Shown one piece after another: positions 3,299-44,305 of a stretch of DNA of 55,004 bases. The translations under genes were made by a program, and so were the position numbers. The DNA comes from Cyanophora paradoxa CCMP329 (taxonomy: Eukaryota > Plantae > Glaucophyta): positions 1 to 55,004 of the forward strand of contig QPMI01000285.1 of NCBI GenBank assembly GCA_004431415.1, read 5' to 3'. The notes under the pieces are model-generated. The model worked only from the letters and a program-made list of their open reading frames with translations. It searched no databases and was not told where the DNA came from. The number at the start of each line of letters is the position of its first letter. The stretch's first letter is position 1.

Positions 3299-4848
3299 AT
3301 GCCTCTCAAAGTAGTTCTCAGTTTGTCAGGGGAGGTGCAAGGGCATTATCATAACCAGGCTGCTCAAAGAAATCGAAAATCGAACTGGCAGGAGAATAAT
3401 CGATCTTGTGGATCTTGTGAGTGGAACTTCCACTGGTGGGATCATTGCTATTGGGTTAAACATCAGGCATCCTGATAAACCAGGTGAACCTAAACTGACA
3501 GCAAACGATTTACACAATATTTACCTAACTCAACTGCCCTTGATTTTCGCAAATCCTCGAAATATCATTGAAAATGCCCTATTTAACACAAAGTATGATG
3601 TGGGACCCTTGGAGACTGCAATCAATTCAGTTACTGGTGAATCACTAATACAGGATTCCCTTAAGACATTGTGATCACATCCTTTGATACTCAGAATATG
3701 AAACCAATATTTATCACAAATGACAACAATTACAACTTTATGCCTTGTAAGATTGCTGCTAGGGCTACTTCTGCTGCTCCTACATATTCTCTCCTGTAAG
3801 CATTGTTGATTTCAATAGGGGAGTATATGTCTGTCTCATTGATGGTGCCATTTCGGGAAACAATAATCCCAGTGTGTGTGGTTACAGCCATGCAAAGAAG
3901 ATTTACAGTGATGATGATGATATTATAGTAATAAGCATCTCTTGTGGTGAGGTAGACCCACATTTAGAGTCTGATTATGTGGGTTATGCTTATGAGACTG
4001 TAAACAGCTGGGGCATTCTCTCATGGATTGCCTCAACAGATGGAAGCCCATTGATTAACATGCTCATGGCTGCAAGTGAGCTTTCTGCCCTTGATAAGAT
4101 GGAGGAGTTGTTACCCTACAACTATGATCAGGATTATGGGAGATACTATAGGTTATCAGTCCCTCTTCCAAATCATATAGTAAGCTCCCTGGATGACACA
4201 TCTAAGATCCCAGACATGCTTGCATTCACTGAAACATACATTGCAGCAAACAATGATATGATCAATAAGCTTTGCAGCCTTCTAGTAGCAAACTATGAAC
4301 TAAAGAACCCTTCAAAGGCTTACATTTCATCCACTCTCACTACATCACCTCCTTTGGATGCCAATTGGTATCAGCTTGCAGATGATGCCTTTACTGCCTC
4401 ATCCTCTGTGACAGGTAAGAGCCTTCATGGCAAGACCTTCAGCATTTGGCTGGGAAGCTGGAGCCTTTGCTCCTGAGCAGATATGGGAAACCCCCACTGA
4501 ATACCTTCAAGTTGCTTTCCCATACACTTTTGAACTCTCCTCTGTGATTGCCTATGGCTCAGGGGACACCAATGCTTTTATTAAGACTTTCAATGTGGCA
4601 ACATCCACTGATGGGATCAACTGGTCTTTTATTCGATCAGATGGGCAAAACAAAATGTATGTCTGTGAGAACATTAACAATGCTCACAACTCAGGTGATG
4701 TGGCTCTATTGAGTGGATTTCCTCTCAGCATCAAGGATGCTTTTTACATAGGTTATTCTCTGAGAATCAAGTATATTCGCATTTATCCCTTGTGTATGTG
4801 AATGCTCCCACAATGAGAGTTGACTTTACAGGTGCCTTTATTCGATAA
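3299..4848 (+). CDS. Patatin-like phospholipase with C-terminal F5/8 type C (discoidin) domain, copy A (frameshifted)
   Basis: GTSTG nucleophile elbow and DGA motif (GGGARG intact in copy B). C-terminal FTASS..W..EYLQV..STDGINW..IRIYP..MRVDFTG is discoidin-like. Restoring one base at ~4790 gives the stop at 4846-4848. Confidence 0.88.
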
Positions 4849-6855: not shown

Positions 6856-8224
6856 ATGGATATCACTTCCACTCTTCAAAGACTTTCGCTGAAAGAAGCC
6901 CTAACAACCCCAGAGGAGGCGAAAGCCTTTTTCCTGGATAACTCCCTTATGCTTGGTCTCGAATCCAAGTCTAAGCCAGTTCTAGTTGTTGTGAATCCTA
7001 GTAATACTTTCACAAATAATGTAGGAAATCGCATTTCCTTCAAGCTACCTCGCTACAATTTCTGTGGAAAACTCGAACTTGCTTTTGACCTTCCAGCTAT
7101 CACTTTTGCTGGTGATACTGATCTAGTTCGCAATGGATACACTCGCCCAGTTGGTGCTTTAGTTCAGCGACTTGAAATTACCTATGGATCTTACACCTAC
7201 CATATTCCATCTGATTTCCTTGCTCATTTCCCCCTGGTCTATTATTCGGAGGATCAACTAGCTAAAAAGAAACGATCAATGGGCATGGTTCATGGCATCC
7301 CTGCTCATGGAACCAACCGACTTGGTGGCTCATTTTTCGTTGAAATTCCAGTGCCTTGGCTAAATCACTACCTTCCCCTTGGTGCTTTATCTGGTGAAAT
7401 GGTTGTTACTGTTTGGTTTAAGGATGTTGGAAAAGGCTATGTTGAAACATCCTATGGTGGTCGTGGTCTTACTGTTGCAGCAGCTGATGTAGATTATTCA
7501 AAAGATGATGGTCTTGGAACTGCCCCTGCTGAAACTGTTCTGGCAAATGTTGGTCAAAACATCACAGACTTTACTCTTGGTGCAACAACTCCTGAAATTT
7601 CAATTACTTCTCCTCGCTTTATATGCATGCTATTAATGTTTCTGATGAGCTTTTCGCTACTGTAATTGAAAAGTTAAGACTACTGGCATGGCTATTCCCT
7701 CCCTTGATATTGGATTTGTTGATGCTATTGCTTTCCCTGCTAAGGGCAATGCCCAACCCAATCGAATTAACCTCTCTCAAATCTCAGGTCTTGTATATGC
7801 TCTGCTTGTTTCAGTTCGTGATAATGCAACTGTTGACAAATCCAATGGCTCCCACAGTGTTCTTAAGACCTATGCCAACTCCAAAGACATAACATTTACA
7901 ACTGAAATAAATGGTCAGCGACTTTTTGCCACTGAGCCAATTTCCCTACTCAAAGGTGCTGAGCTAATTGCTGATGCCTTCAAATGCTCTAACATGGATA
8001 AGGTTGCTGATCGCTATGTCCTTTCAGGATTGCCTTTCTGCCTTGATGGAGAAAAGGCGATTCGAAATATTGCCCAGTCTGGTTATGTTGATTTAACAAA
8101 TTCCTCCTCTTCATTCCTCACCCTCTACATGCCTTCAGATAAGGTAATCGATGTTAATGTTCGCGCTCTCATGCATAGCTTTATTATTGTCGACAAAGAT
8201 GGTTTACGCAGAATTAATTTATAG
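6856..8224 (+). CDS. Major capsid protein (double jelly-roll), one frameshift near 7620
   Basis: SFKLPR..LELAFDLP..GALVQRLEITYG..FVEIPVPW..YLPLGAL..VVTVWF resembles the DJR MCP N-terminal barrel. ~455 aa combined; sits between penton and ATPase. Confidence 0.82.
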
Positions 8225-8289
8225 ATTGTTACGATATTCAGTCTCCCTGCATTATTTTTATATGTCTTTATTAAGAAAGATATACAACA

Positions 8290-8983
8290 ATGACTGATTT
8301 GGATGAATTTGTGGCTGGTGAAATGATAGAACCACCATTTCGTGTATTGGCAATAGGAAAATCAGCAACTGGTAAATCAGAAGCTGTAAAGTATTGGTTA
8401 AAGCAATTACATGATGCCAAAAAGATTGATGTTGTATTAGTTGTGAGTGGAACCAGCTTCAATCATTTCTGGGATAAAGTGGCAACACTGCAACTGGGAA
8501 AATGGGATGCCCTTACATTGCTAAATTGCTAGATGAGAGGCAAGAGAAAATAGAGAAAGGTGAACCTGTTAACCAATTGTGTGTGGTTTTAGATGATTTA
8601 ATCGATAATGAGATAGTCGATCTCACAAGGATAAAATAATCGGATCTCTGTATTCCAGAGGTCGCCATTCGAAAATATCCATTATCTGCATCACACAAAA
8701 GCTAAGAAAAGTCTCTTCGACTATTCGAGTAAATTCGGATTATGCAATGTTTCTAAGTGCTGCAAATCGCAAAGAACTGGAAGCCATAGAGGAAGAATAC
8801 AATATAATGCGAAATAAAGAGGATTTCTACAAGATGTTTGAAGAGTATGTTCACTCCTATCAGTATATCATTTGGTCCTCTGCAAACTACTCAGTTAAAT
8901 ACTATGTAGATAAAGCTGAGCTTGTGAAAGATTTCCCATTTCCTCGCTTCCACAGGAAGCCAAAAAGAAAGAAGATGAACTGA
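8290..8983 (+). CDS. A32-like (FtsK/HerA) genome packaging ATPase, frameshifted
   Basis: Walker A GKSATGKS; Walker B CVVLDD (~8580-8597); RGRHSKISIICITQ motif (~8657-8698). Confidence 0.9.
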
Positions 8984-10831: not shown

Positions 10832-11047
10832 ATTCTCGATCGAAACAAATTTTGTAGAAATCGATTTGATCGGAGGCAAAAAAATGACAGCTTTCTTCCC
10901 TCTTTTTTAAAACTGTACCTATATATCGAGACAGTATCCCGACCCAAAACTACTTAAGGACTTGGCAAATAATAGGATATATATAAAGACAATTCCTCCT
11001 TCCGAAATTATTTTCTTCGTTAAAGGTAGAAGTCCCCAAAATCGAAA

Positions 11048-13636
11048 ATGAACAAATCGAGAAATTCGCCACCCCTGTTGAAAATGCTACATTCCTTAGT
11101 ACTCTCATTGGTGATCGCAACAAGGTCACCCATGTATTTGATTCTGCCGAAGATGCCCTTGAAGCCATTGATAATAGCAAGGTTAAGACCTGGGCTGAAT
11201 GCATTCAACCTGAGCAAGTGACCAGAGTTTACCTGGACCTGGATAAATTCGCTGATTTGAAGGAGAACATTGCTGATAACTATGCTGAGGCGGAAACTGT
11301 TGTAAGAGAGATGAGAGATAAGCTATGGAAGCGATCTGGTACCACTTCTATTAACGATATTGCTGTTGCAGTTCGCCATAGAAGGGTTTATTTGATTAAG
11401 GAGGATGTCACCAAGTTCAAGATTTCAGCCCACTTTATTATTAAATCGCTTGCATGCAAACATGAAGATATCCCCAAGCTTTTCAAAGCGATGGATTGGT
11501 GAAAAATGAGGATTATGACAGTGGAGTTTACAGCTCCACACAGAACCTAATCTGCCTCAATTGCTGCAAAGGTGAGACTCTGGATGCTCAAAATAAGTCG
11601 AAAAAAGATGTTGATAAAAACGTTTGCTTTAAGAAATTCGTTGACTGTGACAAAGTGTTAATGCGAAATGAGGACTTCTTTGTATCTTACTTCTCAGCTA
11701 CTACTAAACTTGTGGATGAATCAAATATTTCTGCATTTGCAAATTATACTCCTGAGCCAAAACCAGTTAAAAAGGAGCCAAAAAGTGATAAAGTGAAGAC
11801 TGAGAAGGTAGAAGCTGAAAAAGACACTGAACCCGAAAATCCTGTTACTTTCGAACTGCTACAAAGTGTTATAATGGGTCTGAATGGTGAGAGAGCTAAT
11901 GAGTATAAAACTTGGATTGATGTAGGACTGGTCATCATCAATGTTGGGGACGACAACAAATTTACCCCTAAAATGCAGGCTGAACTCTTCCACCAATTCT
12001 CAGAACAGAGTGACAAGTATGATTATGATGAATGCCAGGAGAAGTTTACACAGCTTCGCAGAAGCAAGAAGAAGGCTGAGCCTGGCAAAGTGTTGACCTT
12101 CAAATCCTTGGTTTATTGGTTGAGCAAAGATAACAATGAGCTTTTCAAGGAACTCTTCCCCAAAAAGTATGCATTCCTACCAGAGGACACAGATGAAATC
12201 GATTACAAGACTGCAAGTATCCCTCCTTTGGCTGAACATTACAATGTGCATAAGAGGTATTTCAATGCTCGAATGCATCATGTTGAAAATGTTGGTTGTG
12301 TGATGCTCTGGGATGAACAACTACTTTGCTGGATGCCCAAAGATATTGGGAAGCTCTCTACAAAGCATTTCCCCCATTTGATGCATAAGGTGATTGTCAA
12401 TGAGGGAACAGATAATGAGAAAGAGAAATGGAGCAATCATTTAGGAAATGGATTGTGGATCCAACAGCCACAAGATCAACTTACATGGATTTCCTTCCCC
12501 TCCTGCTACTCTCAGTGCAAAATGCAAGTCTGTATTTAATCTCTATCCAGGAATGAAGGTCGACCATCAGCAATTCGAAAATGCTCCAGAGGATGTAACT
12601 GCTGAGATGATTAAGCCTTTCCTTGATCACTTGTTCTTAATGTCTGGTGAGGATCAAAATACCTATGAATATCTGTTGAAATGGTTTGCCCACATGCTGC
12701 AAAAGCCTGGGGAACTCAATGGAGTATCCTTAATCTTCATTGGTGAACAGGGAACTGGTAAGAATGTGTTGGTTGATACTTTCCAAAAGAAGATACTTGG
12801 AGATGCCCTGAGTTATGCAACTGGTAAGCCAAAAGAGGATCTGTTTGGTCGATTTGCCCATAACAGAGAGGATAAGATCCTGATTGTTGTCAATGAAGCC
12901 TCAGGCAAGGACACATTCGAAAATAATGATATGCTCAAAGATCTCATAACTTCTGATAAGATTGTAATTGAACACAAAGGATAGATTCATACACAAAAAG
13001 CAACTTTGCCAGGATTATATTCACCAGCAATAACAACATTCCAGTAAAAATTGAAGCTGGAGATAGGCGATTTGTGGTTGTTGAAGTTAGTAAGAAATTC
13101 GCAAAGGATAGGTCATACTTCCTTCCACTTGTAAAATGGCTAAATGATCACTGCAATATTCGAAACATTGCCCACTATTTGAGAACCAAAGTTGACTGTG
13201 AGGATGTGAACTGGATTGCTGATAGACCCCTTACAAATAAATACTATTTAGCCCAGCAGGTATGCGCCCAATCATTCTTATGTTCACTAAGTGGCTTGTG
13301 GATCGAGGCTTAATTTCCGAGAATAAATGCAAGTCTGGTAGCCTTGTGGAAACCTGGAAATGGTTCCAGGAGTTTATTACCAGCAACAAATATAAAAACG
13401 ATTATAATAGTCGCAGATATTATACAGAAATGCGAAGTGTTACATATATCCAAGTGAAAACTACAAATGGCAAACAATACTATCATTTCTTGTTCCCACA
13501 AGTATTTGAGGAATTCAGAAAGATGAAGCTTGTAGATGATGAGACCATTGAGGAAGAAGCTAATCCAAGGATGAAACAAGAACTACCTGCTGCTGATCCT
13601 GATGCATCAGATTATGACTCTGATGTTGAAGTTTAG
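11048..13636 (+). CDS. AEP primase-PriCT-2-SF3 (D5-like) helicase, frameshifted; start approximate
   Basis: AEP motifs RVYLDLD, KISAH, DSGVY; PriCT-2-like YKTWIDVG..FSEQSDKY..LVYW; Walker A GEQGTGKN, Walker B IVVNE, motif C FTSN, DRRF. Confidence 0.88.
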
Positions 13637-13645: not shown

Positions 13646-13828
13646 AAAGTGGACTCACAGTTGACTCAAATTTATCATAAAAGACCCAAACAGTCTTTTA
13701 TTTATGGTTTATTTATCGATTAGGTTGACTAAGTGGGGGGAGTTGACTCATTTTTTCACAGATTCTAAAAGAGGACTCTGCCCTAAAAAGAAATAAAAAG
13801 TGCCTCAACTCCACCCACTAAGTCAACC
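13646..13828. repeat. Iteron-like GTTGACT/GTGGACT array with inverted pair (candidate origin)
   Basis: AAAGTGGACTCAcaGTTGACTCA (13646), GGTTGACTAAGTGGGGGGAGTTGACTCA (13723-13750), inverted TCAACTCCACCCACTAAGTCAACC (13805-13828). Same layout at 19857-20046. Confidence 0.75.
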
Positions 13829-13879: not shown

Positions 13880-14230
13880 ATGGCTGGAACAGATCATGAT
13901 TCTGGATCGATCTATATGATTGAGAGTCAGGAAATGAACAAAGTCTACATAGGAAGAACCTCACAGCCACTTCAAAAAAGATGGAGACAACACAAATCAG
14001 GTCAAATGCCATCTACAGCAGACCTATGCAAGGCTTCTGATGTGAAGTTCTCAGTCCTGTATTCAAGTAAGAAGGGTGGGCATGAAGACCTAATGAACAG
14101 AGAAGCATATTACATGTATCTCTTTGAACCTTGGATAGTCAATTTACAAAAACCGAAATCCCGATTTAGGATTAATAGGTTTTTGCGATTCCATTCAGAG
14201 GAAGCCAGTGGATCCATTAAAACATTTTAA
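13880..14230 (+). CDS. GIY-YIG endonuclease
   Basis: GSIYMI..VYIGRT..KRWRQH..RE..N motif order. Confidence 0.9.
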   Translation: MAGTDHDSGSIYMIESQEMNKVYIGRTSQPLQKRWRQHKSGQMPSTADLCKASDVKFSVLYSSKKGGHEDLMNREAYYMYLFEPWIVNLQKPKSRFRINRFLRFHSEEASGSIKTF

Positions 14231-14289: not shown

Positions 14290-17200
14290 ATGCCCCGAAT
14301 TACCAACAAACTCATAAGGGAGAAGAAATGGGAACTCATGGGATTGCTGGGAACACTTTATGCAGCCCATGAAATTACAGAGGCTGAATATGACCGGGAA
14401 ATAGATTTAATTGCAAAGGGCAGACCCACTTTAAGCAGATTAACCAGAAAAGCAAATAACCTATATGATAAAATTGAAACCTTGGATGAATTGGATAGGC
14501 TTAGGCAAATAGAACCAGAGGCAGAAGATGGAACAGCCATGAATGAATTATATCGCTGGCTCACTTACAGAGCCAGAAGGGAAGTTGTTGTAGATGTGAT
14601 TGAATTCCTGGACAGAATTGCTACATCCCTTCCAAATCGATTAAAGCAGGGGTTAGATCAATTCAGGGCAATCAAGGTTCGCTTGTCTTTTATCTGCAAG
14701 TTCGTTAAAGTGAGCAATCCACAGGTTTGGATATCGAAATACATTTACAGTGATTACTTTGTATTAACCAGGTCGAGAAATATTCGAACTGAGCTGAATA
14801 AAGCAGCCCAAATGTGTCAGGAGCAGATGAATGTGGTTGATAGCTATCGCTTAGAAAGAATTGAAATACTCAGAGTGGCTATTATGAGTTATGCTCCAAC
14901 TGGTGGATGCTTTCTACAAACCCCAGAGTGGATTGCTAGGAAGAGAGCCACAGTAAATATTCGAAATATTGATGATTCCTGCTTCGAAAATGCAATTTTG
15001 GCATATATTCACAGAAAAGCGATAAACTCCCATAAGAGGAATGAGCTTTCACAATATCGCAAATGGAAATACTCAGCAATCGCTTATAATCCGCTGGCTC
15101 TCAATTTCGATAACATCCCATTCCCTGTTGCCTGTGATGCTGATATTATTGATAAATTCGAGGCTCAAAATGCAGGCATTAGCATTAATATATTTGGAAT
15201 CGATGGAGAGGTTATTTATCCCCTGCATCAATCAAGTAACCCAGGCAGAAAGCATAAGGTTAATCTCATGCTGATATTTGATGATGAAGGGAATGGTCAC
15301 TATATTACAATCATGTCCCTTTCAAGGCTATTGAAAGTAAACCATGAAACATACAATGATCAGAAGTTACACTACTGTGACACATGCTTATCTCGATTCA
15401 GGTCTGAGGCTAAACTCACTGCTCATGTGGACTCAAACAGATGCATTGATTGGAGACTCTCAAAGGGAATCACACCAAAACCTGAGACCACCATAGAGTT
15501 TGGACTGAAAAACCTCAGGAAAACTGTTTGGCTTCCTGTTGTGGTTTACTGCAAGATTGAACATAGAAGCATCCCCATAGATGCATCGAAATCCAAGAGG
15601 GAAGTCTCAGCAGTCAACATTAGAATAGTCACTGGGGCAGATGTTCAAGATTTTCGATTTGAGGGTCAGGATCCAATGGGAGGTCTGTTTGAATGCTTGG
15701 AATCCAAAGCAAGAGAGCTAATTGACTTCCTGTTTACCAATATTCCCATGAATGAACTCACAGATGAGCAAAAGGCTGTTTACAGGGCTACTAAACACTG
15801 TTACCTTTGCAGTGAGAGGTTCACCAAGGAGAACTTCAAATGCAGGGATCATGATCACCACACAGGTCATTATATTGCTCCTGCATGCAGAACCTGCAAT
15901 CTACATAGGAGAATCTCAAAGCAAACAAAAGTAGCAGTGGTTGTTGACCAAATGGATGACTGTGGGACATTCATTTTCAGAAAAATAGCAGGCATGGGTG
16001 ATAAAAAGCGAATCGAAATCCTTTCGAAAAACTTTGATCAATACCTTTCATTGCAATGGGGTCTTTACAAGTTCATTGATGCAAGTAATTTCATGGATTT
16101 TGGAGCTGCTGATGTAGATGAGTTAATGAACAAATTCCAAGCCTTCAGAAGGCTTTCACACTCAGTATATGGACTTGACCCAGTTCATTATGTATCTGCA
16201 CCTGGGTTATCTTGGGATGCTATGCTTAGGACCACCAAGGCAAAAATAGAGCTTATAAGTGATGTAGAGCAATACGAATTTGTTGAGAGGGGAATCAGGG
16301 GTGGCTTTGCAACAATGCCTTGTAGGTATGCTGAGGCTGATGGTGAGAACTCCCATATAATGCTGTTTGATGCTAACAACTTGTATGGCTACTGTTTGAG
16401 TCAGCCAATTCCAGTTGGTGATTTTAGATGGGAGACCGAATTCAACCCACAAGATAACAGATCCAGTTTCCTGGAAGTTGATCTGGATTACCCAATTAGG
16501 CTATATCTAGACCACAGTGATTTCCCCCTAATTATTAACAAGAAAATAGTAGAGTATGCAGAATTATCACAATATCAAAAGAGCCTATTAGATATTTCAG
16601 GAGAAGAGCTTGATAAAACCCCTAAGCTAACTGCAACCTTTGGTTCTGTGACAAACTATGTGATTTCTGAGCCTCTTCTGCAATATCTGTTGGACAAAGG
16701 GGTGAAATTAAAGAAAGTTCACAGGGTCCTATCATTTACTGTGGCTCCTGTAATGAAACCCTATATTGAGCTGAATACTGACATGAGAAGGAAAGCAGTG
16801 AATAAATTCGAGGCTGATTTCTACAAGCTCATGAATAATTCAATCTATGGGAAATGCATTGAATCTTGCAGAGGTAGATCTGTGGTTAAGATTGCAAACA
16901 GTGAGAAACTATTTATGAAATATGCAGCCTCCCCATTGGTGAAATCAACAAGCCCCATAAACGAAAAAGCAGTTGCCTTTGAGTTTTACACAAAGCATGT
17001 GAAACTAGATAAGCCTGTTGCAATTGGGGCTTATGTTTTGGATGCAGCCAAACTGCATAATTACCAGTTCTTCTATGATACTGTAAGGTCCCAATGGACA
17101 AAAGCAAAGTTACTATTCCATGATACTGACTCCTTCTGTCTATATATTGAATCTAAGACCATTGCAAAAGATATAGAGAATATATCTTATGCATTAGACC

Positions 17201-17535
17201 TTGGAGGTGATTCCAGAATGACCCCAGGTAAATACAAAAATGAAATGCCAGGTTCTGCAATCCTGGAGTATGTAGGTCTGAGAGCCAAGGTTTACAGTTT
17301 CAGAACAGCTGAGATTGAGAGAAGTAAGCTCTCTGGGACTTCCACTGAGGAACTCCAATTTAATGATTTTAAGCAGTGTTTATTTGCAGGTATAAGCAAG
17401 ACTGTGACTGCCAAGCAAAAGAGAAGGGCAGATCACACAATAGTAGACACTGTGAGTAGAAGGGTTGCCCTGAACTGCTTTGATGCAAAGAGATACATCT
17501 TACCAGATGGTATTAATTCTGTTCCTTTTAATTAA
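14290..17535 (+). CDS. Protein-primed family B DNA polymerase (Polinton type) with degenerate exonuclease
   Basis: Pol motifs FDANNLYG, KLMNNSIYGK, HDTDS, GLRAKVY; vOTU-like DDSCF..GHY; endonuclease-VII-like Zn finger CYLC..RDHDHHTG..CRTCN. Confidence 0.95.
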   Translation: MPRITNKLIREKKWELMGLLGTLYAAHEITEAEYDREIDLIAKGRPTLSRLTRKANNLYDKIETLDELDRLRQIEPEAEDGTAMNELYRWLTYRARREVVVDVIEFLDRIATSLPNRLKQGLDQFRAIKVRLSFICKFVKVSNPQVWISKYIYSDYFVLTRSRNIRTELNKAAQMCQEQMNVVDSYRLERIEILRVAIMSYAPTGGCFLQTPEWIARKRATVNIRNIDDSCFENAILAYIHRKAINSHKRNELSQYRKWKYSAIAYNPLALNFDNIPFPVACDADIIDKFEAQNAGISINIFGIDGEVIYPLHQSSNPGRKHKVNLMLIFDDEGNGHYITIMSLSRLLKVNHETYNDQKLHYCDTCLSRFRSEAKLTAHVDSNRCIDWRLSKGITPKPETTIEFGLKNLRKTVWLPVVVYCKIEHRSIPIDASKSKREVSAVNIRIVTGADVQDFRFEGQDPMGGLFECLESKARELIDFLFTNIPMNELTDEQKAVYRATKHCYLCSERFTKENFKCRDHDHHTGHYIAPACRTCNLHRRISKQTKVAVVVDQMDDCGTFIFRKIAGMGDKKRIEILSKNFDQYLSLQWGLYKFIDASNFMDFGAADVDELMNKFQAFRRLSHSVYGLDPVHYVSAPGLSWDAMLRTTKAKIELISDVEQYEFVERGIRGGFATMPCRYAEADGENSHIMLFDANNLYGYCLSQPIPVGDFRWETEFNPQDNRSSFLEVDLDYPIRLYLDHSDFPLIINKKIVEYAELSQYQKSLLDISGEELDKTPKLTATFGSVTNYVISEPLLQYLLDKGVKLKKVHRVLSFTVAPVMKPYIELNTDMRRKAVNKFEADFYKLMNNSIYGKCIESCRGRSVVKIANSEKLFMKYAASPLVKSTSPINEKAVAFEFYTKHVKLDKPVAIGAYVLDAAKLHNYQFFYDTVRSQWTKAKLLFHDTDSFCLYIESKTIAKDIENISYALDLGGDSRMTPGKYKNEMPGSAILEYVGLRAKVYSFRTAEIERSKLSGTSTEELQFNDFKQCLFAGISKTVTAKQKRRADHTIVDTVSRRVALNCFDAKRYILPDGINSVPFN

Positions 17536-17538: not shown

Positions 17539-18924
17539 ATGCCAGCAACTGGAAGAATAGTTAGGAGAACCACTGACCAACTGCAAGGGAACCTACTGCC
17601 CATCACAATTCCAAAGGAGGAAAAGGGGGAATCTCGAATTGTTAAAAAGTCTGAAATGAAAGAGCTTGTCCCAGTAGAGATCCCAGTTGCTATTGCAGTG
17701 AAAGAAACCAGCAAGATTGCCAAGAGATTCTATGATGTGAGAACTGGTTACAAAGGGCTTCAAGCTATGAGGGCTGAGTTACCAGATGAATCCTATAAGC
17801 AGTTGCAAGAGTTCTATAAAAAACAAGAGGTAGTTCAGATCAATGCACCTGCTATATCTAGAAAGAGAGATCCCATGGTCCCAATCAGGCAACCCCTTGA
17901 TACCTATGTGATTGATTTGCTCTTTTTCCCAGCTTATAAGAAACAAAACAATGGCTATGACACCTTCATGACTGCAATGGAATCCACACTGAGAACTGGG
18001 TATATTATACCTATAAGGGATAAATCAGCTCTCACTACATTGGCTGCATTTAAACAGCTTGAAATGAGAGTGGCAAGACCAATAGTAAAGGTTCAATCAG
18101 ATGCTGGGAGTGAATTCCAAAATCGAATATTCCAGGAGTATTTATCTGGTAAATACATAGAACACCAAGTGAGTGGAACTGCTGACCACAGAAGCCAAGG
18201 TAGAATTGAAGCCTTTAACAAACAGATTAAGAGACTGATCACAAACTACTGCATAGCCAATAACACAGCTAGATTCTTTGATGTGTTAGGTGATATTGAG
18301 TATAATTACAATAATACAGTCCACTCAGCTACTAAGATGAAGCCAGGCGAAACTACAGAGAAGCATTATAGGTATATAGTGGGATTAGAAGATGAAAGAT
18401 TCAAGAAATCAATAGCTTACCTTGATACCATGCAGCCTGGCATGTTTGTGAGAGTGAAAGTTGAGAAAAACCCCTTTGCTAAACAGGGTAACAATTGGTC
18501 TAGGATGGTTTACACTGTTGATAGTAGGGAAGGCTTTAAGTTTAAGCTAAGGAGTCCCACTGGTGAGATCATAGATAACAGGTTTGCTTTCCATGAGCTG
18601 TTGCCTGTGAATGCAGTTGAGTACCTGGAAACCCCTACAGTTGATGCCTTGGAGCAAGCTAAAGAGGAAGCCAGGGTTGATGCTGCTATAAGGAGAGAAG
18701 GCATAGAGGCTGCTAATGAGGTCCCAGATAAGCCTTTGATAGAGGCTAGGAAGGAGAAGGCTGGGAAAGTTAGCAGGGAACTCAAAAAGCTCACCATAGC
18801 AGGCACACAGAAACTTTCAGAAGTGAATAGCCAGAGGTGGTATAATGACTTTCAGACTACTAAGGAGTCATATACAGCCCCTAAACCTCAAAGAACACTA
18901 AGAGAAAGGACCAAAACTAGCTAG
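17539..18924 (+). CDS. Retroviral-like (rve, DDE) integrase of Polinton type
   Basis: YVID, QSDAGSEF, GRIEAFN, YNNTVHSATKMKP, NWS..VYTV; no C-terminal chromodomain recognised. Confidence 0.95.
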   Translation: MPATGRIVRRTTDQLQGNLLPITIPKEEKGESRIVKKSEMKELVPVEIPVAIAVKETSKIAKRFYDVRTGYKGLQAMRAELPDESYKQLQEFYKKQEVVQINAPAISRKRDPMVPIRQPLDTYVIDLLFFPAYKKQNNGYDTFMTAMESTLRTGYIIPIRDKSALTTLAAFKQLEMRVARPIVKVQSDAGSEFQNRIFQEYLSGKYIEHQVSGTADHRSQGRIEAFNKQIKRLITNYCIANNTARFFDVLGDIEYNYNNTVHSATKMKPGETTEKHYRYIVGLEDERFKKSIAYLDTMQPGMFVRVKVEKNPFAKQGNNWSRMVYTVDSREGFKFKLRSPTGEIIDNRFAFHELLPVNAVEYLETPTVDALEQAKEEARVDAAIRREGIEAANEVPDKPLIEARKEKAGKVSRELKKLTIAGTQKLSEVNSQRWYNDFQTTKESYTAPKPQRTLRERTKTS

Positions 18925-19152
18925 TTTGCTAGGCGAAAACTCGTTTTTTCCAAATATATGTATGTGTCATATACATAAATGCCCACGATATACACATAGT
19001 CTTGTAGAGCTTATCAAGCGCTTCACAGCGATATGCAGAACGTTGCGTTTTGATGATCTGGTGATGAGATATAACAGTTTGAAGATGCAAAAGTCACTTG
19101 CCATAGTAGACTTGGTGAAACACTAGCCCAGGAGTCGACTTGGTGGTAAGCC

Positions 19153-19822: not shown

Positions 19823-19978
19823 CCCTAGATTCCCCCTATTATATAATATTTATATTAAAGTGGACTCAAGGTTGACTCATATTAATCGTAAAAGTAGTAA
19901 TAGTATATGGATTTTGTTACGAATTCAATGCAAGGGTTGACTAAGTGGGTTGAGTTGACTCAAATTTCACAGGAAATA
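19823..19978. repeat. 156-bp sub-terminal block, exact inverted copy of 44306-44461
   Basis: Base-by-base reverse-complement match; contains GTTGACT iterons. Confidence 0.95.
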
Positions 19979-20571
19979 TTTGGGACCTAAAGTTTTCTAA
20001 AAAGGATTTGAAAAAATGTGTCAACTCCCCCCACTTAGTCAACCCTGACCATAAACAGTAAGGATTTGAGCTAACATGTATCACAAAGTGAACATTTTGA
20101 GTCCACTTAGAAGATCCACTTTTGAAATCAAAGTTGATTTTGCTTGAAATTTCAAAGTTGATCTAAAAGTGAGTCCACCCTGATTGATTATGGTAACAAA
20201 GTTGACTAAGTTGACTAAGTTGAGTCATCTTAAGAAATTCAAGGAGACTAAGAGTTCAAAATGTTTATGAAAAGTGAGTCAACTTAGACCACTTATGGTA
20301 ACAAACTTAAATATTTAATTGATTTAATCGGAAAAGAACATGATTTAATCGAATTTATTGATATAATTCCGATTAGATTCATTTAGGATTCAATTAAGAT
20401 CAATCGAAGTTATAGATATAATTCCGATTAACTACAATTAAGATACAATATCGATTAATCGAGTTTATCGATATAAAATCGATTAAATTAATTGAAAATG
20501 CATTTAAAAATATGAAAATTCATGTGAAAATTCAAATAAATTAATCGATTTTATTGATATAACATCGAATC

Positions 20572-20644
20572 ACACATATGAATATTCATATTTTAATCCT
20601 GAGGCGGAACGCCGAGGGATTAAAATATGAATATTCATATGTGT
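20572..20644. repeat. Terminal fold-back of copy A: perfect 28-bp arms, 17-nt loop
   Basis: ACACATATGAATATTCATATTTTAATCC (20572-20599) / GGATTAAAATATGAATATTCATATGTGT (20617-20644). Confidence 0.97.
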
Positions 20645-23600
20645 AGCCTTGGGAGGGTGGAAGGCGATACCCGTATTGAACTGCAAGAGATGCTGGAGGG
20701 CCCGGCTCGTGATCTCATTCCGCTTGTTCTCCGTGAGGCGCCGCCGCTGAGTTTGCGACAGCTGCTCGTCCTTCTTGCCGGATTCGCGCAATCGTTTGCC
20801 GGTGCCCACCAAGAGAGGCCGCTGCGTCACGCGAAGCTCCTCCTCCGCCGTGAAGTACGGATCCGTGCCCAGAGAGCGCGCCACGATGTCCTCCCAGCTG
20901 AGTCCCGTTCGCAAGTATTGCGGGAGTTTGTGCGGTCCGACTCTCCCACGGTAATCGGTACCCTGAAGGAGCTCTGCGATCGCCGTCGAGATGGGCATGT
21001 ACTCGTTCGGGAGTCGCGGCAGGAGGTGGCGGATCGGAGTGTCCGGGGAATCGCGGTCCCAACAGAGGTATACGCCGAGGTGCACATGGGCGTCTCGAAG
21101 GTACGCGCGAAGAACAGAGAGAAGCGTGAGCGGATGCTCGAGGCCAGGGATTGCGAGGATGCGGTTCGCCATCGCCGTAGCCATCCGTTCGGCGACGAGG
21201 TGGCCCTCCGGCGTCGACGCCTCCTGGTACCGCGTCGCCAGCGCAACGCGGAGCGCAACAGCGAGCACGCGAGCCCGAGGCTGCGAAGCTGCCAGAAGTG
21301 CGGCCTCGTTGCGCGTGATGAGGATTTCACTGTGAGGTTCGTAGCTGAGTGGGATCGGGTCGGTAGCCGGGAGGCGCTTGAGCTTCATCGTAGGCGGTTG
21401 GGCCTGGCCGAACCCCTCACTGGTGAACGCGTCGCGAACGTAGTTGATGATGGCGTGCGTGTACGCAGTCTGGTCACGGATACTATTCATGCGCGCCATA
21501 GCGACGGTCGGGCTAAGTTCCGTGACGAAGGCAGTGCCCGTCGGTGAGGACCCCTTGCGATGCTGCTCCAAACCCGCCTCGCACGCCTTTAGTGCCGCGT
21601 CTGCGTTCGTCGGGACAGAAGAGCGATGACCGGGGTTCGGGATAGAGATGGCGATAGACGAGTACGTGAGCTCAAATTCCCGCGTGAGGTCGCGAAGGAA
21701 GCAGGACGTGAGGCGGCCGCCTCGGTGGCTGTCAAGAACTAGACGGCCAAAATGTGTTGTCCAGGACATCAGGTCCGGAGTGAGCCGCGCCGTATCCGTC
21801 GTGAGGTTCAGTGCCCGAAGCATGTACTCAGACTGTTCGATGATCACGCTGAAGGTGTAGGCCCGCGGGATTGCATCGTTCTCGACCAGAAGCGGTTGCG
21901 GTTCGCAGAAGGTCGTGCGGAGAGAGGCGTCATCTGTGGCACTGACGACGCTTGCCAGCAGCGTGCCCTGAGCGAGTGCCCTGGCCCGGAGATGGACAGA
22001 GACGCGAGGTATCAGCGCAGCCGTGTGCCGTAGCTTCGAGTCGACGTAATCGATGAGGACTTGCCCTTCTTCTGCCTCCAGCGCGGGAGGGAGCCTGTGC
22101 AATTCTCGAAGAGACTGGTGGAACAGTCGAACGCGTACAGCATGCGTGTCGCCTTGCGCCGTGACTGCGCGCAGCGTGGAGTGGTGGTGCAGCGGTGAGG
22201 TCGTGGCCCCCTCGCCTTTGCGAGCGTCCAGCGCCGTCTTGTAGGCCCGGGCCGTGTCGATCACTGAGGAAAGGATCGCGGTAGCCACCGAGTCCGTCGT
22301 GTAGCTTGCGATGCTCGCGTCGGTTGCGCTGAGGCCGAGGAACTCAAGGAAGGGAACCGACGAAGTCAGGTCACGTAGAGTCACGAGCTCCGCCGGGGTG
22401 CTGTCGTAGGCCAGACAGGCGACAAGGTAGACTGCTGAGCGGAAGCGGGGAATGTGATGCAGCAACTGTGCGGCCTGCGCCTCGCGAGTGACCTTGTACG
22501 TGAGCGGGATCGGGCGCTTCTCGTCCTTGAAACGGGCCATGTCATCGTCGTTCAGCGGCGCCTGCCGATCCGACGTGCAAGGTTGTTCTGGAACACGCCC
22601 GTGTTTGCGATGCCCACCGCGTCATAAGAGGCGGGGCACCACGCGACGGGCGCTCGTCCGAGTACAGGTCTGCGTTGTCCAGCGCCGTCGTCATGAGCAT
22701 GTACGATTGCTCGCCTGGCCAGTAGATCGCGCAGCCTGGGGCAAGGGAGAATGTGTGGGCGGGATCTCGCGAACGTCGGGAGGCGGGTGAAGTCTGCCGT
22801 GCTCGTCGGGTGCGATGTGAAGCCGCGCGCAGAGCTCCTTGCTGAACGACGTGTCCGTGTCCTCAGCCTCCTCCGGGGCCGTCGGCGTCGTGGTCGAGGT
22901 CCCGCGGTCGGCGTCATGACTGTCGGCGCCGTCGGCATCGCGGCCGAGGGTGCGACAGCGGACGTTGTCACCGACGGGCTGGAGTCATAGCCGGCGCCTT
23001 CGGCTGCACGGCCGAGGCGTGGGGGATACGTCGCGGGCTTCGGAGTTGCGACTGCAACCTGTACCGTCGGCGGCGCGGCCGAGGGTGCGGTGGGCAGCTG
23101 GTCCGAAGGCATCGTCCCGCGCGGGCGCGCGGACGGTGGGCGCCACGAGCCGCCTGCAGCCGGGATGGCATCGTCCAAGCCGTCGCTTGCAGGGCGGGTT
23201 AACGAGACAGCAGCCGAGCCCGTCGGCGTTCCAGCTGGCTCGTCGTGGTCACTTGGCGACTCCTCGTCGCGGTCCTGGGCGCGCCGGCGGTACTCCTCGT
23301 TCCTCCGCCGCTGGTCCGTCTCCTCGTCCGCCGTGCGGAGGGCGGTGAGCTGCATGAGCGTCATGATGCGCTCGTTCGCATGCGGCACGATGTCGTCGAA
23401 GAACGGGAGAGGATCATCGTTGGCGAACTGAATGATCGCCCGCTCCACCTCCAGCTCCGACAGTTTGAAGGCCGTGCACACTCGTTCGCGGTGCGCCGGC
23501 GCCATCAGCAGAAGTACGCGAAGGAGGACGTGGGGAGGGTAGTCTTCCATGTAGCCCGTGCCCAGTGCGGGGAGGGACTGAGGGTTCCAGATCCACTGGA

Positions 23601-31235: not shown

Positions 31236-32765
31236 CTACTCGAACTTGATATCGTACCTGCGCGCCCCCGCGCCCCAGCGCCCCTCAGCCGGTCGGCCCG
31301 CGTGTGAGGGGGCTCGGCTCCGCGGTGCCGCGGGGGGCGCGGGGGCGGGGGGGCGCACTTGCCGCGGGTCATGTCGCCGAGGATGCGCTGCGTGCTCGCG
31401 TACTCGGCCTCCTCCACCACCCGCCTGCGCGCGCGGCGCATCAAAGGGGCCCCGAGGCGGCCGCCCGGCGGGGCGGGGGCACCGGATCTCGGCGGCGCGC
31501 TGCCGGGGGTCCGCCTCCTCGTTCACGATCGCGGAGATGACCGCCACGCCCTGGCGCGTCCCGAGGCTCGGGCGGGCGCCCGGCGGGGACGGAGGAGAGG
31601 GGCCCGTCGGCGCGCACCGCCGCGCCCGCCGCGATGGCCGGCTCCGCGTTGTTCGCGTTGATGCCGCCTGGCGGGCGCGAGGGCCGTTCAGGCGGCCCCG
31701 CGGAGGGTTGGCTCGTCGACGTCGACGCGGGCGCGCGCGTGCGCACCGATCGCGATCACCGGCAAATCGATCTCCTGCCGGCGGGGGTCGGGGGCGTGCG
31801 GGGGCGGGCGGGCGCCGGCGGGGGCGGGGCGGCTGCGGGGCGGGCGGACCTGGCAGATCTGGTCGATCCGCTCGACGCCGACGGGCGCGCCGCTGTCCGA
31901 CTTGGTCGCCGTCGCGTACACCTGCACAGGGGAAGGGGCCGCTCCGAGGGGCGCGGGGGAAAGGGGGCGGGGCGGGGGCGGGGGGCACCGGCCCCACGCC
32001 AACGTAGTCGGCCCCGTCCTCCTGCGCCCTCCGCGCCTCGGCGAGAGTCTTGACGGAGACGCCCACGATCTTCCCCTCCGGCAGCAGCTTCCTCGCCAGC
32101 ATCGCTGCCCTGGCGGTGAGCGCGGGGCTCGGCCGGCCTCGGCGGCCTCGGCGGCGGGTACCCGGCATGTCGTCCTGGCCGACGTGTACCCCGTCCGCGT
32201 CGACCGCCATCGCCACGTCGAGCCGGTCGTTGATGATGAGGAGGGACTGCAGGCGGTACCCGTCGGCCGCGGGGTACCGGTGCGGCGCCCAGGGCGCGGG
32301 GGGGCCACGGACCTCGAACTCGCGCGTGAGGGCGCGGAGCTGCATCGCCTCGTTGATCATCTCCCGCGTGCTCTTGTTCTTCTCCCTGTACTGGACTGCG
32401 ACGAGAGAAAGGCTCGGCGGGGGCAGAGGCCTGGGGCGTCAAGGGGCCGCACCGATGCCGGCGCCCCCGCGCAGCGCCTCCCGCACTATCTCGATGAGGT
32501 CGCGCTTGCCGGCCAGCTTCGAATCCGTCACAAGGTACAGCGACCAGTCGATCTCCAGTTCCCTGCGCCGGCGTCGGCCGCGGTCAGGGCGCGCTCGCGG
32601 GCCGTGCAGCGAGCGGGGCTCGGATCGGAGCGCATAGCCAAGCGGCATTGGAACGAGCGCAGCGGGAGCGCACTCGTCGTTTGCGCTCGGCGGCCGAGGG
32701 CTCGGATTCGCGTTGGAGCTGCGCCGCCCGCTCCCGTTCCCGTTGCCGTTCCCGTTCAGCACCAT
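31236..32765 (-). CDS. thiE: Thiamine-phosphate synthase, spliced host gene (start uncertain)
   Basis: Exon peptides SLYLVTD, VQYREK, LIINDRLDVAMAVDADGVHVGQDD, IVGVS, GADYVGVGP, VYATATK, LPVIAIG, GINANN, GVAVISAI separated by short GC-rich introns. Confidence 0.92.
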
Positions 32766-32976: not shown

Positions 32977-35501
32977 ATGTTCGTCGCGCAGGCCCCCGTG
33001 GTCGCCCGCGGCGAGGCTGCGGCGGAGCTGGTCAGGAGCATGGCCGCGCGGCGGCAGCAGCCGCCGGCCCGCCGGCAGCGCCAGCTTGCACGCAGCACTT
33101 TCCTCGGCGACGCGACGGCCGCGGCGGGCCCGAGCTGCGCGGGATCCGCGACCACTCGCCAGGGCATCGCGTACGATCGGAGCGGCCGCGAGGCACCGGC
33201 CTTCTCGGGCCCGCAGGCTTCGCTCATCGAGGAGCTGCACAGGAAGCTGACAAGCAAGGAGGTCTCGGCCGTGGAGCTCGCGCAGCAGTACTTGAAGCGC
33301 ATCGAAGCCGTGGAGCCGAAGGTCAAGAGCTTCATCTCCGTCTCCCCGGACCTGTGCGCCCCACCCCGGCAAAGAATCTAGCTCGAGCGCCGGCGCGCGG
33401 CGCCCTCACGCGGCGCCGCGGGGGCGCTCGCGGGGGCTCGTGCGGGCCTCCTGACGGCGCGGGACAGGGCGCTGGAGCAGGCGAAGGCGGTGGACGCGCG
33501 GATCGCCAAGGGCGAGGAGGTGGGCCTGCTGGCGGGCCTGCCGCTCGCGGTGAAGGACAACCTGTGCACGCGGGGCGCCCCAACGACCGCCGGCTCCCGC
33601 ATCCTCGACGGCTTCCTCTCCCCCTACGAGTCCACTGCCTCCCAGGCGCAGGCCCCCGCCCGCCCCCACCCCGCCGGCGGCGCCGCCGCTGACGCGCCCC
33701 GCCCGGCCGCGCCGCGCAGCGCCTGCTGGACGCCGGGATGGTTATGGTCGGCAAGACGAACATGGACGAGTTCGGCATGGGCAGGTACTCCCCGCCCTCC
33801 CGCCCCCGCCCCCGCGTGCCCCGCCCCGCTCCGGCCCGCCTGACCTCCGTGCGGGGGTACAGCTCCACCGAGAACTCGGGGTACCACGTCACGGCGAACC
33901 CATGGGACACCTCGAAGGTCCCCGGCGGCTCCTCCGGCGGTTCCGCCGCGGCGGTCGCCGCCCAGGCGCGAACCCCCGCCGGCTCCACCCCCCGCCCGCG
34001 CTCACCCGCGCCCCGCAGGAGTGCGTGGGCGCGCTCGGCTCAGACACCGGAGGCTCGATCCGCCAGGCACCCCGCGGCCCCGGCCCGCCCGCGCACTCTC
34101 CCCTGACGACGTACCCCCCGCAGCCGTCGGCGTTCTGCGGCGTGGTGGGCCTGAAGCCGACCTACGGGCGCGTCTCGCGGCACGGCCTCATCGCGTGCGC
34201 CGGCGCCCCCTCTCGCCGCGCCCCGGCCGCGCGCGACGCCGGCGGGGCGCAGCTACGCGTCGTCGCTGGACACCGTCGGCCCCATCGCCCGCACCGTCAA
34301 GGCGAGCGTCCCCCCTCCGCCCCCTTGGGCGAGGGGCGCGAGCGAGCCGGGGGCGGGCGCAGGACGCGGCGATCCTCCTCTCTGCCCTCGCCGGGCGCGA
34401 CGCCATGGACGGGACCTCCTCCCCCGCCAAGGCCTGCCCCCCGCCCCGCCCCGCGCCCGCCCCCTCGAGCGGGCCGGGCGGGCAGGTGGGGGACTACGCG
34501 GGGGCGCTGGGGGCGGAGGGGGGCTCCCTCAAGGGCCTCCGCGTGGGCCTCCTCCAGGAGACCCTCGCCGACGGCCTCGACCCCGAGGTGGCGGGGGCCC
34601 TGCACCCCGCCCCCGCCCCCGCCCCCCGCCCCGCTCAGCCTGCGCAGGTGAAGGCGGCCGTGCTGGCGGCCGCGGAGCAGCTGCGCGCCCTCGGCGCCGA
34701 CGTCCTCGACGTCTCCTGCCCCGCTTCGCCTACGGCGCCGGTGCCCGCCCCCGCCCCGCCCCGCCCCGCCCCCGCCCTTCCGCCGGGCAGCGGGGCTGAT
34801 GGCGGGGTGCTGCGGCGGGGCAGCGGCGTACTACGTGATCGCGCCCTCGGAGGCGAGCGCCAACCTCGCCCGCTACGACGGCGTCCGGTGCGCCCCGGCC
34901 GCCCCGCCCGCCCCGCCCCGCCCCGCCCCGCCCCTCGCCGACGGGGGCGGGGGGCAGGTACGGGAGGCGGGCGGCGGCGTCGGACCTGGTCGCCATGTAC
35001 CGCGACTCCCGCGAGGCCGGCCTCGGCCCCGAGGTCCCCCCCGCCCCCCGCCCCGCCCCCCCATCCCCTGCCCTGGTGATCCGGTGCCCCCCAGGTCAAG
35101 CGGCGCATCATGGTGGGGACGTACGCCCTCTCCTCGGGCTACTACGACGCCTTCTACGACAAGGCGCAGCGCGTGCGGCCCCGCGCCCGTACCCCCCGCT
35201 CCAATCCCGATCACGATACCCCCTCCAGGTCCGCTCCCTCGTGAAGCAGGACTTCGACGCGGCGTTCGAGAAGGCGCGTGGCCGCCTCCAGCGGCGGGGG
35301 CCGGCCCCGCGCTGAACACGGGGCGGGGCGGGGCGGGCAGGTGGACGTGCTGGTGAGCCCGGTGGCGCCCTCGCCGGCCTTCGGGATCGGCGAGAAGTCC
35401 TCAGACCCGGTGCGCGGGGCCCCCGCACCGCCACGGCCGCCTCCGACGGGGCCGGCGCCGGCGCCAGGTCTCGCTGTACCTGGGGGACCTTATGACGATC
35501 C

Positions 35502-41529: not shown

Positions 41530-43382
41530 AGACAGGACTTCGGGGGTACGGAAAATTTGCGGTTGCGCGACGATTACGGCAGCGCGGCGGGCCAGGTTTC
41601 CCACCCGTGGGTTCCTGATAACGCTGCGTGTCAAGCTGCTCGGAAAGTCGCGCGCCGAGCCCACCCGACCCTTGTAGTCCGAAAGCGCTAGATAGGTCAG
41701 CCAGGAGCCGACGGATGGCCGAAAACAGCGCACCACCCCCCAGTAAGGCCGCTGAGACGAGCGGCCCGCCCCCGGATCGCCCGGGAGCGCCCCCGACCTT
41801 CACGGTCGCGTTTTTGAATGTCGAGAGCCTGACCAGCGTCCCCCGCCGCGTCTGGCTCACCCGGTGGCTTAAAAAGAGGCACATAGACGTTCTAGGCCTC
41901 GTGGACCACCGCCTCAGCCCTAAAGAGATCGCCGCCTTCGCCCGCCGCGTCGGCCCGCACTGGTCCGCTCACATCCCCCCAGCAGCGAACCCGCGCCCGG
42001 ACACTTGGAGCAGAGGCACTGGCTTCATCGTGCGCAACCAGATCCCAGGCCTCCCCGGTGCCCAGGCCGAGCTCGTCCCCCTCGCGCCCCGCGCGGGCCT
42101 GCCCGCGCACGATGTTACAGTTCTCCGCCTTGGCAGCGCCGATCACAACTATTACATCGCGTGCGTCTACGCCGCGAACGCCGTAGACGCGCAGCGCCGC
42201 CTCGCCGCAGGTCTCCAAGCTTCACTAACGGAACCCACGATCCCTCAAGGCGCCTCGCTGATCCTCGGCGGCGACTTCAACGCTTACGCCCAGCCGCTCC
42301 TCGAGAGCCGCCGCCGCGCAACCGGCGCGCCGCCCCCGCCGTTCGCTCACTGGGCAGAGATGCTCGCAGACCTCGGTCTTCAAGACGAGCACCGCCGTCG
42401 CCGCCCCGAGGAACGTATCTACACGCGCTGGCACAACAAGACCAGCCGCTCGAGCACAAACGCAGCCCGCCTCGACCACGTCTTCCTCTCGGCTGACCTC
42501 TGCGCCGCGGCAGAGAAAGTGGGCGTCTTCCGCACCGCCGGCCAAGCGCCGCGGCCAGACCACGATGCCGTTTACGCGCGCCTCTTCACGGGGGCTAAAC
42601 CCGTGACCAAATCATCCCGCTTCCGCCTGCAAGACCGCGTCCTCGCCCGCCCGGACTTCGACAAACGCGTTCGCGCGCTCATCGCTGACTCGCTCGCGGC
42701 GCAGCCCCCGCGACGGACGCACGAGTGGCAACGCTGGCTCGACAAGCTCATCACCGACATCCGGTCCATTGCCCACTCTCTCCGCCCGCGCGCTAACTCG
42801 GAACTCCGGGAGGCGCGCGAAGCCGTCGCAGACATGTGGGCAGGCGCCGAACAGGCGCTGCAGGAAGCCGGCCGCGATACCGAAGCCGAGGACGGCGCGG
42901 TGGCGCTCATCGGGTACCTGGCCCTCGAGGAAGCCAAGCTGGACGCGGCCGAGGCCGCCTTCCACTCCCGTAAGAACCTAGAACGCGCGCTCTCCGGAGC
43001 GGTCACCATCCCCCCCGACCTTGCCCGCCACATGCGCTACGCCGGCGCTGACCACGAAATGCGCTCGATGCAGCCGTACCCCCCGACCCCGGACACACCG
43101 CCCGCCTCCGATCACGCGACGATGACGGGGTACGTCAAGGCGTACTACACCGAGCTTCTCACCGCTCAGCGCCCCCTACCCCCCGACCTCCCCCCCCCAC
43201 CTGCGCCCGGCCCCGCCGCCGGCCCCGTACCCCCCCCTCCACCGTCCTCCGGACGCGGCGAAGCCCGCCCGTCCTCTCCACCTCCCCCGGGGCCAGTGCA
43301 GAAACGTGCACGCTCGGATCCCTCCCGTCCGCTGCCCGAGCCAGACGAGGCTCGCCCGGACCCGGCCCCCGCGCCGGACCCC
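41530..43382 (+). mobile_element. Non-LTR retrotransposon (L1/Tx1-like) fragment, 3' part displaced by PLV copy B; 5' boundary approximate
   Basis: Intronless APE-domain ORF preceded by a short ORF end (stop 41691); cut at 43382. Confidence 0.8.
41715..43382 (+). CDS. LINE ORF2 N-terminus: APE-type endonuclease (truncated before RT)
   Basis: FLNVESL, IDVLGLVDH, RGTGFIV, CVYA, ILGGDFN, YT, RLDHVFLS, DHDAV motifs in APE order. Confidence 0.88.
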
Positions 43383-44253: not shown

Positions 44254-44305
44254 GTTAGTTGGTGTAGTTGATTCAAAAAATGCATTTTATACTCTGATTC
44301 ATTGT

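Follow-up and report, generated by a model that had tools for sequence, protein, structure and literature searches.

How does a Polinton-type virus start replication, and how are its ends handed over to the integrase? The available part of bioRxiv 10.64898/2026.07.28.741278 calls for experimental tests of both points in Polintons and PLVs. Here the question arises from 73 nt at the edge of an AT-rich block in Cyanophora paradoxa DNA (20572-20644 of the 55,004-nt stretch that we analyzed, hereafter the window), where an initial annotation had proposed that each viral end is its own fold-back and that its terminal nucleotides are templated from, or must pair with, a copy lying farther in at that end.

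Two copies of one virus in host DNA

The window comprises two AT-rich blocks (∼39% GC), at 1-20644 and 43383-55004, that flank GC-rich host DNA with intron-split genes. The blocks are two copies, A and B, of one Polinton-type virus. Copy A shows its right end and copy B its left; A's left end and B's right end, which a comparison of the two TIRs of one copy and of its 5- to 6-bp target duplication would require, fall outside the window, in which neither copy is whole. GC content steps from 31% to 61% across 20644/20645 and from 78% to 30% across 43382/43383, and because these steps lie at the outer ends of the terminal arms described below, we take 20644 and 43383 to be the element termini. 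The copies share 3.5 kb at 94.5% identity in the same orientation, and identity is only 68% immediately left of the shared block; A and B are mosaics, in which swapped ends are expected. The alignment of the shared 3.5 kb has 40 gap openings.

The right terminal region of A and the left terminal region of B have only an inner 156-bp core in common (19823-19978 in A, 44306-44461 in B; 100% identical, inverted) and are unlike outside it; the join between this core and B is present in the short-read run X17. The core contains repeated GTTGACT/TGACTCA, a candidate promoter motif that is found again within the outer end of A and ahead of two genes, those for the GIY-YIG nuclease and the polymerase (13646-13758). 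B's terminal region also holds two tandem 93-bp units (43920-44012 and 44117-44209), none of which occurs in A's end; each forms a hairpin with 35-bp arms and begins with a doubled GTGTGACAG.

B's insertion (41715-43382 side) splits a LINE-like ORF with an endonuclease/exonuclease/phosphatase domain. A's insertion (20645-22540 side) splits a long ORF without a Pfam match, whose depth is 3-4x that of single junction contigs and which is probably a repeat, so that both insertions are likely to lie within mobile DNA. Farther into the host segment, exons at 31236-32360 and 33902-34651 (thiamine monophosphate synthase, amidase) lie between C-rich intron-like stretches.

Polymerase, integrase, and other genes

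Block A carries genes for a candidate capsid protein, an A32-type ATPase, a primase-helicase, a GIY-YIG nuclease, a family B polymerase, and an rve integrase, all on the + strand, followed by ∼1.7 kb of noncoding DNA between the integrase and the right end. The polymerase, integrase, and ATPase that mark Polintons and PLVs are thus all present, and the earlier assignment of these ends to Polinton-type viruses stands. The integrase (17539-18924) is an open frame with conserved D126/D188/E224; it matches PF00665 at E = 9e-4, below the curated cutoff, and the D/D/E residues are invariant in 4/4 aligned sequences. The GIY-YIG endonuclease (13880-14230) matches PF01541 at E = 1e-10, the primase-helicase (10987-13636; PriCT_2, DUF5906) is spread over several frames, and the packaging ATPase (8275-8983) over two, with a Pox_A32 match (PF04665, E = 1.3e-5) in one of the two fragments. 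The candidate major capsid protein (6856-8224) is one gene across two frames, both pieces of which align to unnamed homologues of 431 to 456 aa; it has no Pfam or PDB match, and its single-sequence model (pLDDT 45) gave no fold match at E ≤ 0.001. Among the scanned ORFs (46 + 12) of these two copies, both incomplete in the window, we found no match to a maturation protease and no Pfam match to an HUH Rep.

The polymerase (14290-17535) is an open frame that matches PF03175 and the protein-primed family B enzymes (pPolB). Its model (pLDDT 84) matches phi29 polymerase (E = 1.5e-17) and predicts a terminal protein (TP)-like fold along with a vOTU-like domain. A first homologue search found none, and a search with the C-terminal region then gave homologues: the best matches are Polinton-type enzymes, at 35-40% identity over the C-terminal half, and a remnant of the exonuclease fold is kept. 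We compared this pPolB and P0001, the relative nearest to it (47% identity), with 70 of 120 listed homologues, namely those of at least 1,180 aa (49 shorter ones were left out). Motifs Exo I and Exo II occur in 69 of the 70 homologues and Exo III in 55; all three are absent from both pPolB and P0001, which also have in common a deletion of ∼100 residues and retain polymerase motifs A to C and the vOTU Cys and His. These alignments argue that the two proteins represent an evolved lineage of proofreading-less Polinton polymerases rather than an assembly error.

The predicted priming loop is five residues shorter in both members of this lineage, and the Gly-Ser-Gly context seen in 54/70 homologues is lost. 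Both proteins keep a Ser-Tyr pair in this loop, which connects the last helix to the strand; in the window protein the pair is Ser185/Tyr186. The accessible text of PMC11071308 places the priming Ser or Tyr in the same loop. This pPolB may therefore still be capable of protein priming.

Copy A has many frame breaks between 1270 and 13636 (in the capsid candidate, ATPase, primase-helicase, and a patatin gene), with the polymerase and integrase open; the breaks reflect either decay or long-read errors. Copy B encodes an S-adenosylmethionine decarboxylase adjoining its left end (44715-45113), a 930-aa fiber-like protein with a Peptidase_S74 chaperone domain (47498-50290), and a patatin lipase (53567-54820). 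Small AT-rich hairpins directly follow the stop codons of the integrase (18958-18981) and the decarboxylase (44610-44656). Giant viruses have a hairpin rule for transcript 3′ ends, and by analogy these hairpins are possibly transcript 3′-end signals.

Each visible end is a perfect fold-back

At the right end of copy A, the 28-bp outer arm (20617-20644, − strand; reading ACAC inward from the terminus) is 28/28 complementary to an inner inverted copy (20572-20599, + strand), from which it is separated by a 17-nt neck (20600-20616, + strand). The fold-back at the left end of copy B (43383-43666) likewise has an outer arm (43383-43410) that is 28/28 complementary to an inner copy (43639-43666), here across a neck and loop of 228 nt (43411-43638), all on the + strand. 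Beyond the inner arm of both copies lies the same GATT (20568-20571, − strand, in A; 43667-43670, + strand, in B), which places the candidate nick site at TGT/GATT. Pairing halts after exactly 28 bp at both ends, with three mismatches followed by 3 to 4 GC pairs, although B could form a 29th pair by using one host base. The neck reads CCCTCGGC/GCCTCWGG at both ends, with spacers of 5 nt (A) and 216 nt (B); the loop closed by the GC stem is 3 nt in A and long and AT-rich in B. These results bear out the initial annotation as to the local fold-back, its arm length, neck, and spacers, and the GATT flank.

Perfect terminal repeats of this length are not a chance product of composition: across 1,000 dinucleotide shuffles per end (first 300 nt), the longest terminal perfect inverted repeat was 11 bp, and all 138 flank-motif matches in other collections pair at best at 11 to 17 of 28 positions. 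Aligned without gaps, the A and B arms are identical at 19/28 positions and differ at positions 8, 9, 12, 15, 17, 18, 20, 24, and 26; all nine differences are compensated in the inner copy, a covariation observed between n = 2 end types. The fold-backs are real, and their arms change in concert. The initial annotation had called the arm middle perfectly paired within each end yet unrelated between ends. The pairing holds, but because 6 of the 13 middle positions are identical (P ∼ 0.17), "unrelated" is indistinguishable from "diverged." Positions 5 to 20 of the A arm form a 16-bp palindrome on their own, and the same positions in B are not palindromic.

Both ends place a terminal palindrome at the host junction, the feature by which the Halocafeteria-type ends discussed below are recognized. 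In a palindrome screen with a gap limit of 10 and 4 mismatches, A would pass (3 mismatches, 3-nt loop) and B would fail (228-nt gap). Screens with short gap limits therefore miss long-loop ends, which may be more frequent than reported.

Strand asymmetry and folding of the neck

On the strand that ends in the 3′-OH, A's neck folds with T.G, G.A, and A.G mismatches, a 4-bp GC stem, and a GAA triloop, and B's with A.G, G.A, and A.G mismatches, a 3-bp GC stem, and then an imperfect stem and AT-rich spacer. The opposite strand has C/T mismatches at both ends. From the comparison of A with B, the tandem G.A/A.G is the conserved element, with the variable W outside it. In DNA, tandem G.A pairs form stable stacks. 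The consulted part of PMC5449611 describes folded 3′ overhangs of Streptomyces telomeres in which sheared G:A pairs close GNA loops.

The nearest-neighbor energies of the two strands are nearly equal (−30.6 and −29.5 kcal/mol), and because the energy model leaves noncanonical pairs unscored, any strand preference depends on those pairs. We infer from the G.A asymmetry that the folding strand is the 3′-ending single strand. Folded with 20 to 24 nt of inner flank, its 3′-terminal base is predicted to pair with its arm partner at a probability of ∼0.9; such terminal pairing, with template beyond it, would constitute a primer-template geometry.

Short-read contigs confirm the A hairpin

Our short-read data are contigs from four runs (X1, X14, X17, and X18) of three samples, X17 and X18 being the same sample; they were compared with the right part of copy A, so that this test covers A's end. 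At least half of the words of this right part are present in 20 of 23 listed runs of one organism. Contigs tile the A hairpin without differences, neck included, at 20570-20644 in X1 and 20572-20644 in X17 (contigs overlapping by 30 nt); tiling is partial in X14 and X18 (among 32/234 contig pieces listed). Among the matches listed, no hairpin variant reached 1% of summed depth. The initial annotation had raised the possibility that the fold-backs are chimeric-read artifacts. This can be dismissed, as can an assembly artifact: contigs from the four runs tile the hairpin, and a chimera would not yield the identical asymmetric neck at two ends.

Host contigs begin exactly at 20645 in 4/4 runs, and in 4/4 a host contig crosses 20645 into other GC-rich sequence, with 20650-20700 otherwise uncovered. 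A's site is therefore unoccupied in every one of the four runs; this fixes the terminus at 20644 and shows that the samples do not share the insertion, which is consistent with recent mobility. By eye, the interrupted host ORF reads through the 30 letters shown of the empty allele without a stop codon.

Neck depth is 19-21x that of the host flank in X1, X14, and X18 and 3.7x in X17, so the A-type end is plainly multicopy, though depth is no copy number. Stand-alone mini-transposon caps are ruled out as the general case, since neck depth equals inner-flank depth in X14 (8000 versus 7670) and X18 (2595 versus 2450). In X17, unlike X18, the neck lies at half the inner-flank depth (51 versus 103), which we read as possible library dropout of the hairpin. 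A-type outer sequence stands at 12.7-17.9x host-flank depth against 3.5-3.8x for A's right-hand inner sequence in X1 and X14, and at 7.4x against 2.2x in X17. Outer ends are thus ∼3 to 5 times deeper in three runs, which weakly suggests that the A arm is not restricted to this right end. All four runs also contain a low-depth variant that departs at 20609, after the outer arm and half of the neck, into other sequence (a contig of 828 nt in X17) and represents a loop insertion or a third loop type.

One loop orientation dominates

Because the 17-nt A neck differs from its own reverse complement at nine positions, an inverted loop is recognizable. The only two 31-mers that span inner flank, arm, and neck provide the test. 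In X17 they occur at depths of 50 and 50 (neck, 51.3); in X1 both lie in one unbranched contig of depth 3917 (neck, 4057 to 4167); in X18 one lies in a contig of depth 2412 (neck, 2595). They carry ∼82 to 97% of neck depth in X1 and X17 (roughly 82 to 90% in X1). One loop orientation thus dominates at integrated A-type ends in X1, X17, and X18, and these depths rule out a 1:1 flip/flop there.

The exception is a 1,426-nt X1 contig in which the arm and an inverted neck directly follow a GC-rich flank, the junction falling exactly at 20572. Over 39 nt this junction shows 1 difference, where the usual orientation would give 6, and its depth of 49.6 is 1.2% of that of the neck; its flank recurs in X17. 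The contig represents either an inverted-loop end or a stand-alone 73-bp unit. Since it joins the flank exactly at 20572, the inner arm boundary is able to become a host junction.

A self-priming model for the ends

We propose that the 3′ end folds onto its inner copy as its own primer and that the integrase then nicks TGT/GATT and integrates, a reading that we place slightly below even odds (probability, ∼0.45). A single strand would form via excision or strand displacement, and its 3′ end would snap back locally, so that the paired 3′-OH faces the remainder of the genome as its template. Extension by pPolB or a host polymerase, with any missing part of the outer arm first filled from the inner arm, would produce a duplex closed by a hairpin, whose new junction would be the TGT/GATT conserved at the inner arm. 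The rve integrase would nick the arm/GATT boundary and transfer the 3′-OH to the target, after which host gap repair would unfold the hairpin into arm-loop-arm, always in the same orientation. The free genome, the hairpin-closed intermediate, and nicking by a Polinton integrase are what the model proposes. At the other, open end, protein priming may coexist because the terminal-protein fold is retained.

Complete pairing at both ends and compensation of every arm difference support self-priming, and the local self-priming or end-regeneration role put forward at the outset fits both the geometry and the strand asymmetry. The arms would be identical and covary because both would be strands of one stem during extension, corrected by fill-in or mismatch repair; self-priming would likewise account for arm length, orientation, strand asymmetry, and GATT with the enzymes present. 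Further support comes from the exonuclease loss and shortened priming loop of the polymerase, the intact DDE triad of the integrase, the junction at the inner arm boundary, and the empty A site in 4/4 runs. Arm homogenization would need host enzymes, since a polymerase that has lost its exonuclease is unable to trim back a 3′ arm with mismatches, and B's 228-nt loop counts against the model, as it slows snap-back relative to A.

More tentatively, and with the odds against it, the lineage may have moved from protein priming to parvovirus-like self-priming, with the integrase as a hairpin-resolving nickase that makes resolution and integration one step; each end would be rebuilt from an internal master copy, and the ends need not match.

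Alternative explanations

The fact that both members of the polymerase lineage keep the TP fold, the Ser-Tyr, and the vOTU Cys and His argues against self-priming, and protein priming alone may be at work; an ACAC terminus suits slide-back protein priming. These same features, together with a primase-helicase that could replicate from inside, would fit Streptomyces-style patching, which we consider possible but doubtful. The folded 3′ overhang would then serve for recognition and as a template for repair, with the pPolB TP priming at the end, or at the inner copy followed by a jump, without a covalently closed intermediate. Fold-back repair of truncated 3′ ends and subsequent TP priming have been shown for Streptomyces (PMC5449611, in the part accessible), and patching would explain most of the same facts, including preserved orientation and an inner arm that acts as master copy. 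However, the polymerase would have to stop at the arm boundary despite a continuing template, the Gly found in 54/70 homologues is missing from its shortened priming loop, and patching alone leaves the junction exactly at the inner arm boundary unexplained. A duplication without function is an unlikely reading but has the small sample on its side (n = 2): an accidental snap-back would once have duplicated the end, with occasional gene conversion between close inverted repeats keeping the arms alike. Accidental annealing is named as an alternative in the text seen of bioRxiv 10.64898/2026.07.28.741278. Yet arm length, the noncomplementary neck, and GATT are conserved between ends that differ at 9 of 28 arm positions and in loop size (17 versus 228 nt), conversion should tend to remove the mismatches of the neck, and the agreement of neck and inner-flank depths in X14 and X18 puts a fold-back on essentially all A-type ends.

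Loop orientation bears most directly on closed hairpin telomeres of the poxvirus kind, with head-to-head concatemers, in which off-center opening at integration would write the inverted duplication. Perfect arms would then be trivial, as two strands of one duplex; the mismatched tip fits, a GIY-YIG nuclease and a primase-helicase are encoded, and one inverted-loop junction exists. Poxvirus concatemer resolution gives both loop orientations about equally, and closed telomeres predict the same here, whereas one dominates in X1, X17, and X18; a 228-nt loop would moreover make a poor closed telomere, and we judge this origin quite unlikely. Lower still stands the idea, offered with the initial annotation, that the variable arm core is an end-identity tag; in a fuller form, the tag would mark left (B-type) versus right (A-type) ends of one element, and local folding would free the ends from having to match. 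Terminal regions with only the 156-bp core in common, on bodies that are 94.5% identical over 3.5 kb, would suit such a tag. The outer/inner depth ratios, however, exceed what an arm confined to right ends predicts (depth is rough, and diverged right-hand interiors are missed), and swapped ends are expected of mosaic copies. We consider the tag very improbable and unsupported.

Relation to known systems

The initial annotation knew of no such structure in PLVs, a claim that does not survive: the accessible text of bioRxiv 10.64898/2026.07.28.741278 describes terminal palindromes beside target duplications in four virophage subtypes (1, 2, 5, and 6) and PLV subtype 4 of Halocafeteria seosinensis, and proposes hairpin priming for them. 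The present end type is a variant of that known arrangement. The terms "hairpin" and "palindrom" are absent from PMC12220804, PMC8547959, and PMC12721341; the available portions of PMC11296320, PMC12747079, PMC4046053, and bioRxiv 10.1101/2022.07.28.501842 contain no such PLV end, only palindromes in some casposon TIRs. Our searches of the open-access literature turned up no account in which Polinton ends show arm covariation, a fixed orientation, or the G.A motif. Among the matches listed, motif scans of viral contigs, metagenome contigs, and prokaryotic genomes gave no further fold-back ends (nine of the matches, L001 to L009, are one phage-like locus without a fold-back), and protein-based locus searches returned nothing for the integrase or capsid candidate; for pPolB they recovered a single distant contig, which lacks a perfect terminal repeat.

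For the experimental tests called for above, the A end provides a defined substrate of 73 nt, and the B end a natural counterpart that differs by nine compensated changes and has a long loop. The nick site is predicted, the structural motif is strand-specific, integrase and polymerase are both intact, and the family is apparently mobile.

Like the Halocafeteria ends, as far as their description is available, those of A and B place a palindrome at the extremity of an rve-integrating element, adjoining the host junction. The Halocafeteria palindromes accompany mostly non-pPolB replicases and come from a screen with a gap limit of 10 (bioRxiv 10.64898/2026.07.28.741278, same portion), whereas here pPolB is present and open, a primase-helicase is also encoded, and B's loop is 228 nt. 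Covariation, fixed orientation, and the strand-specific G.A motif are documented here and do not appear in the Halocafeteria text consulted. The mavirus pPolB, in the accessible part of PMC11071308, also combines exonuclease loss beside a helicase gene (a separate SF3 helicase in mavirus) with retained TP and vOTU domains; unlike it, the enzyme described here has its best matches among Polinton-type polymerases and keeps a remnant of the exonuclease fold. The panhandle model of Polintons/Mavericks, in the sources at hand, involves the same pPolB, rve integrase, packaging ATPase, long terminal regions, and ACAC tip; in that model the two ends pair with one another and no extendable 3′-OH is left, whereas here each end can pair locally.

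In the AAV ITR, too, a terminal arm pairs with a copy of itself farther inside that end and so provides a 3′ primer (PMC1131931, in part). There, according to the same portion, an HUH Rep nicks the parental strand and flip and flop both occur; here one orientation dominates, and the scanned ORFs contain no Rep domain. Counterparts at the sequence level are the Streptomyces Tap/Tpg telomeres, which, in the passages of PMC5449611 at hand, likewise have a folded 3′ strand with a GNA loop, purine-purine pairs, an internal copy, and a terminal protein; they cap bacterial replicons that do not integrate, use a Tap primase, and carry a conserved 13-nt palindrome, in contrast to the 28-bp arm with a changeable middle described here.
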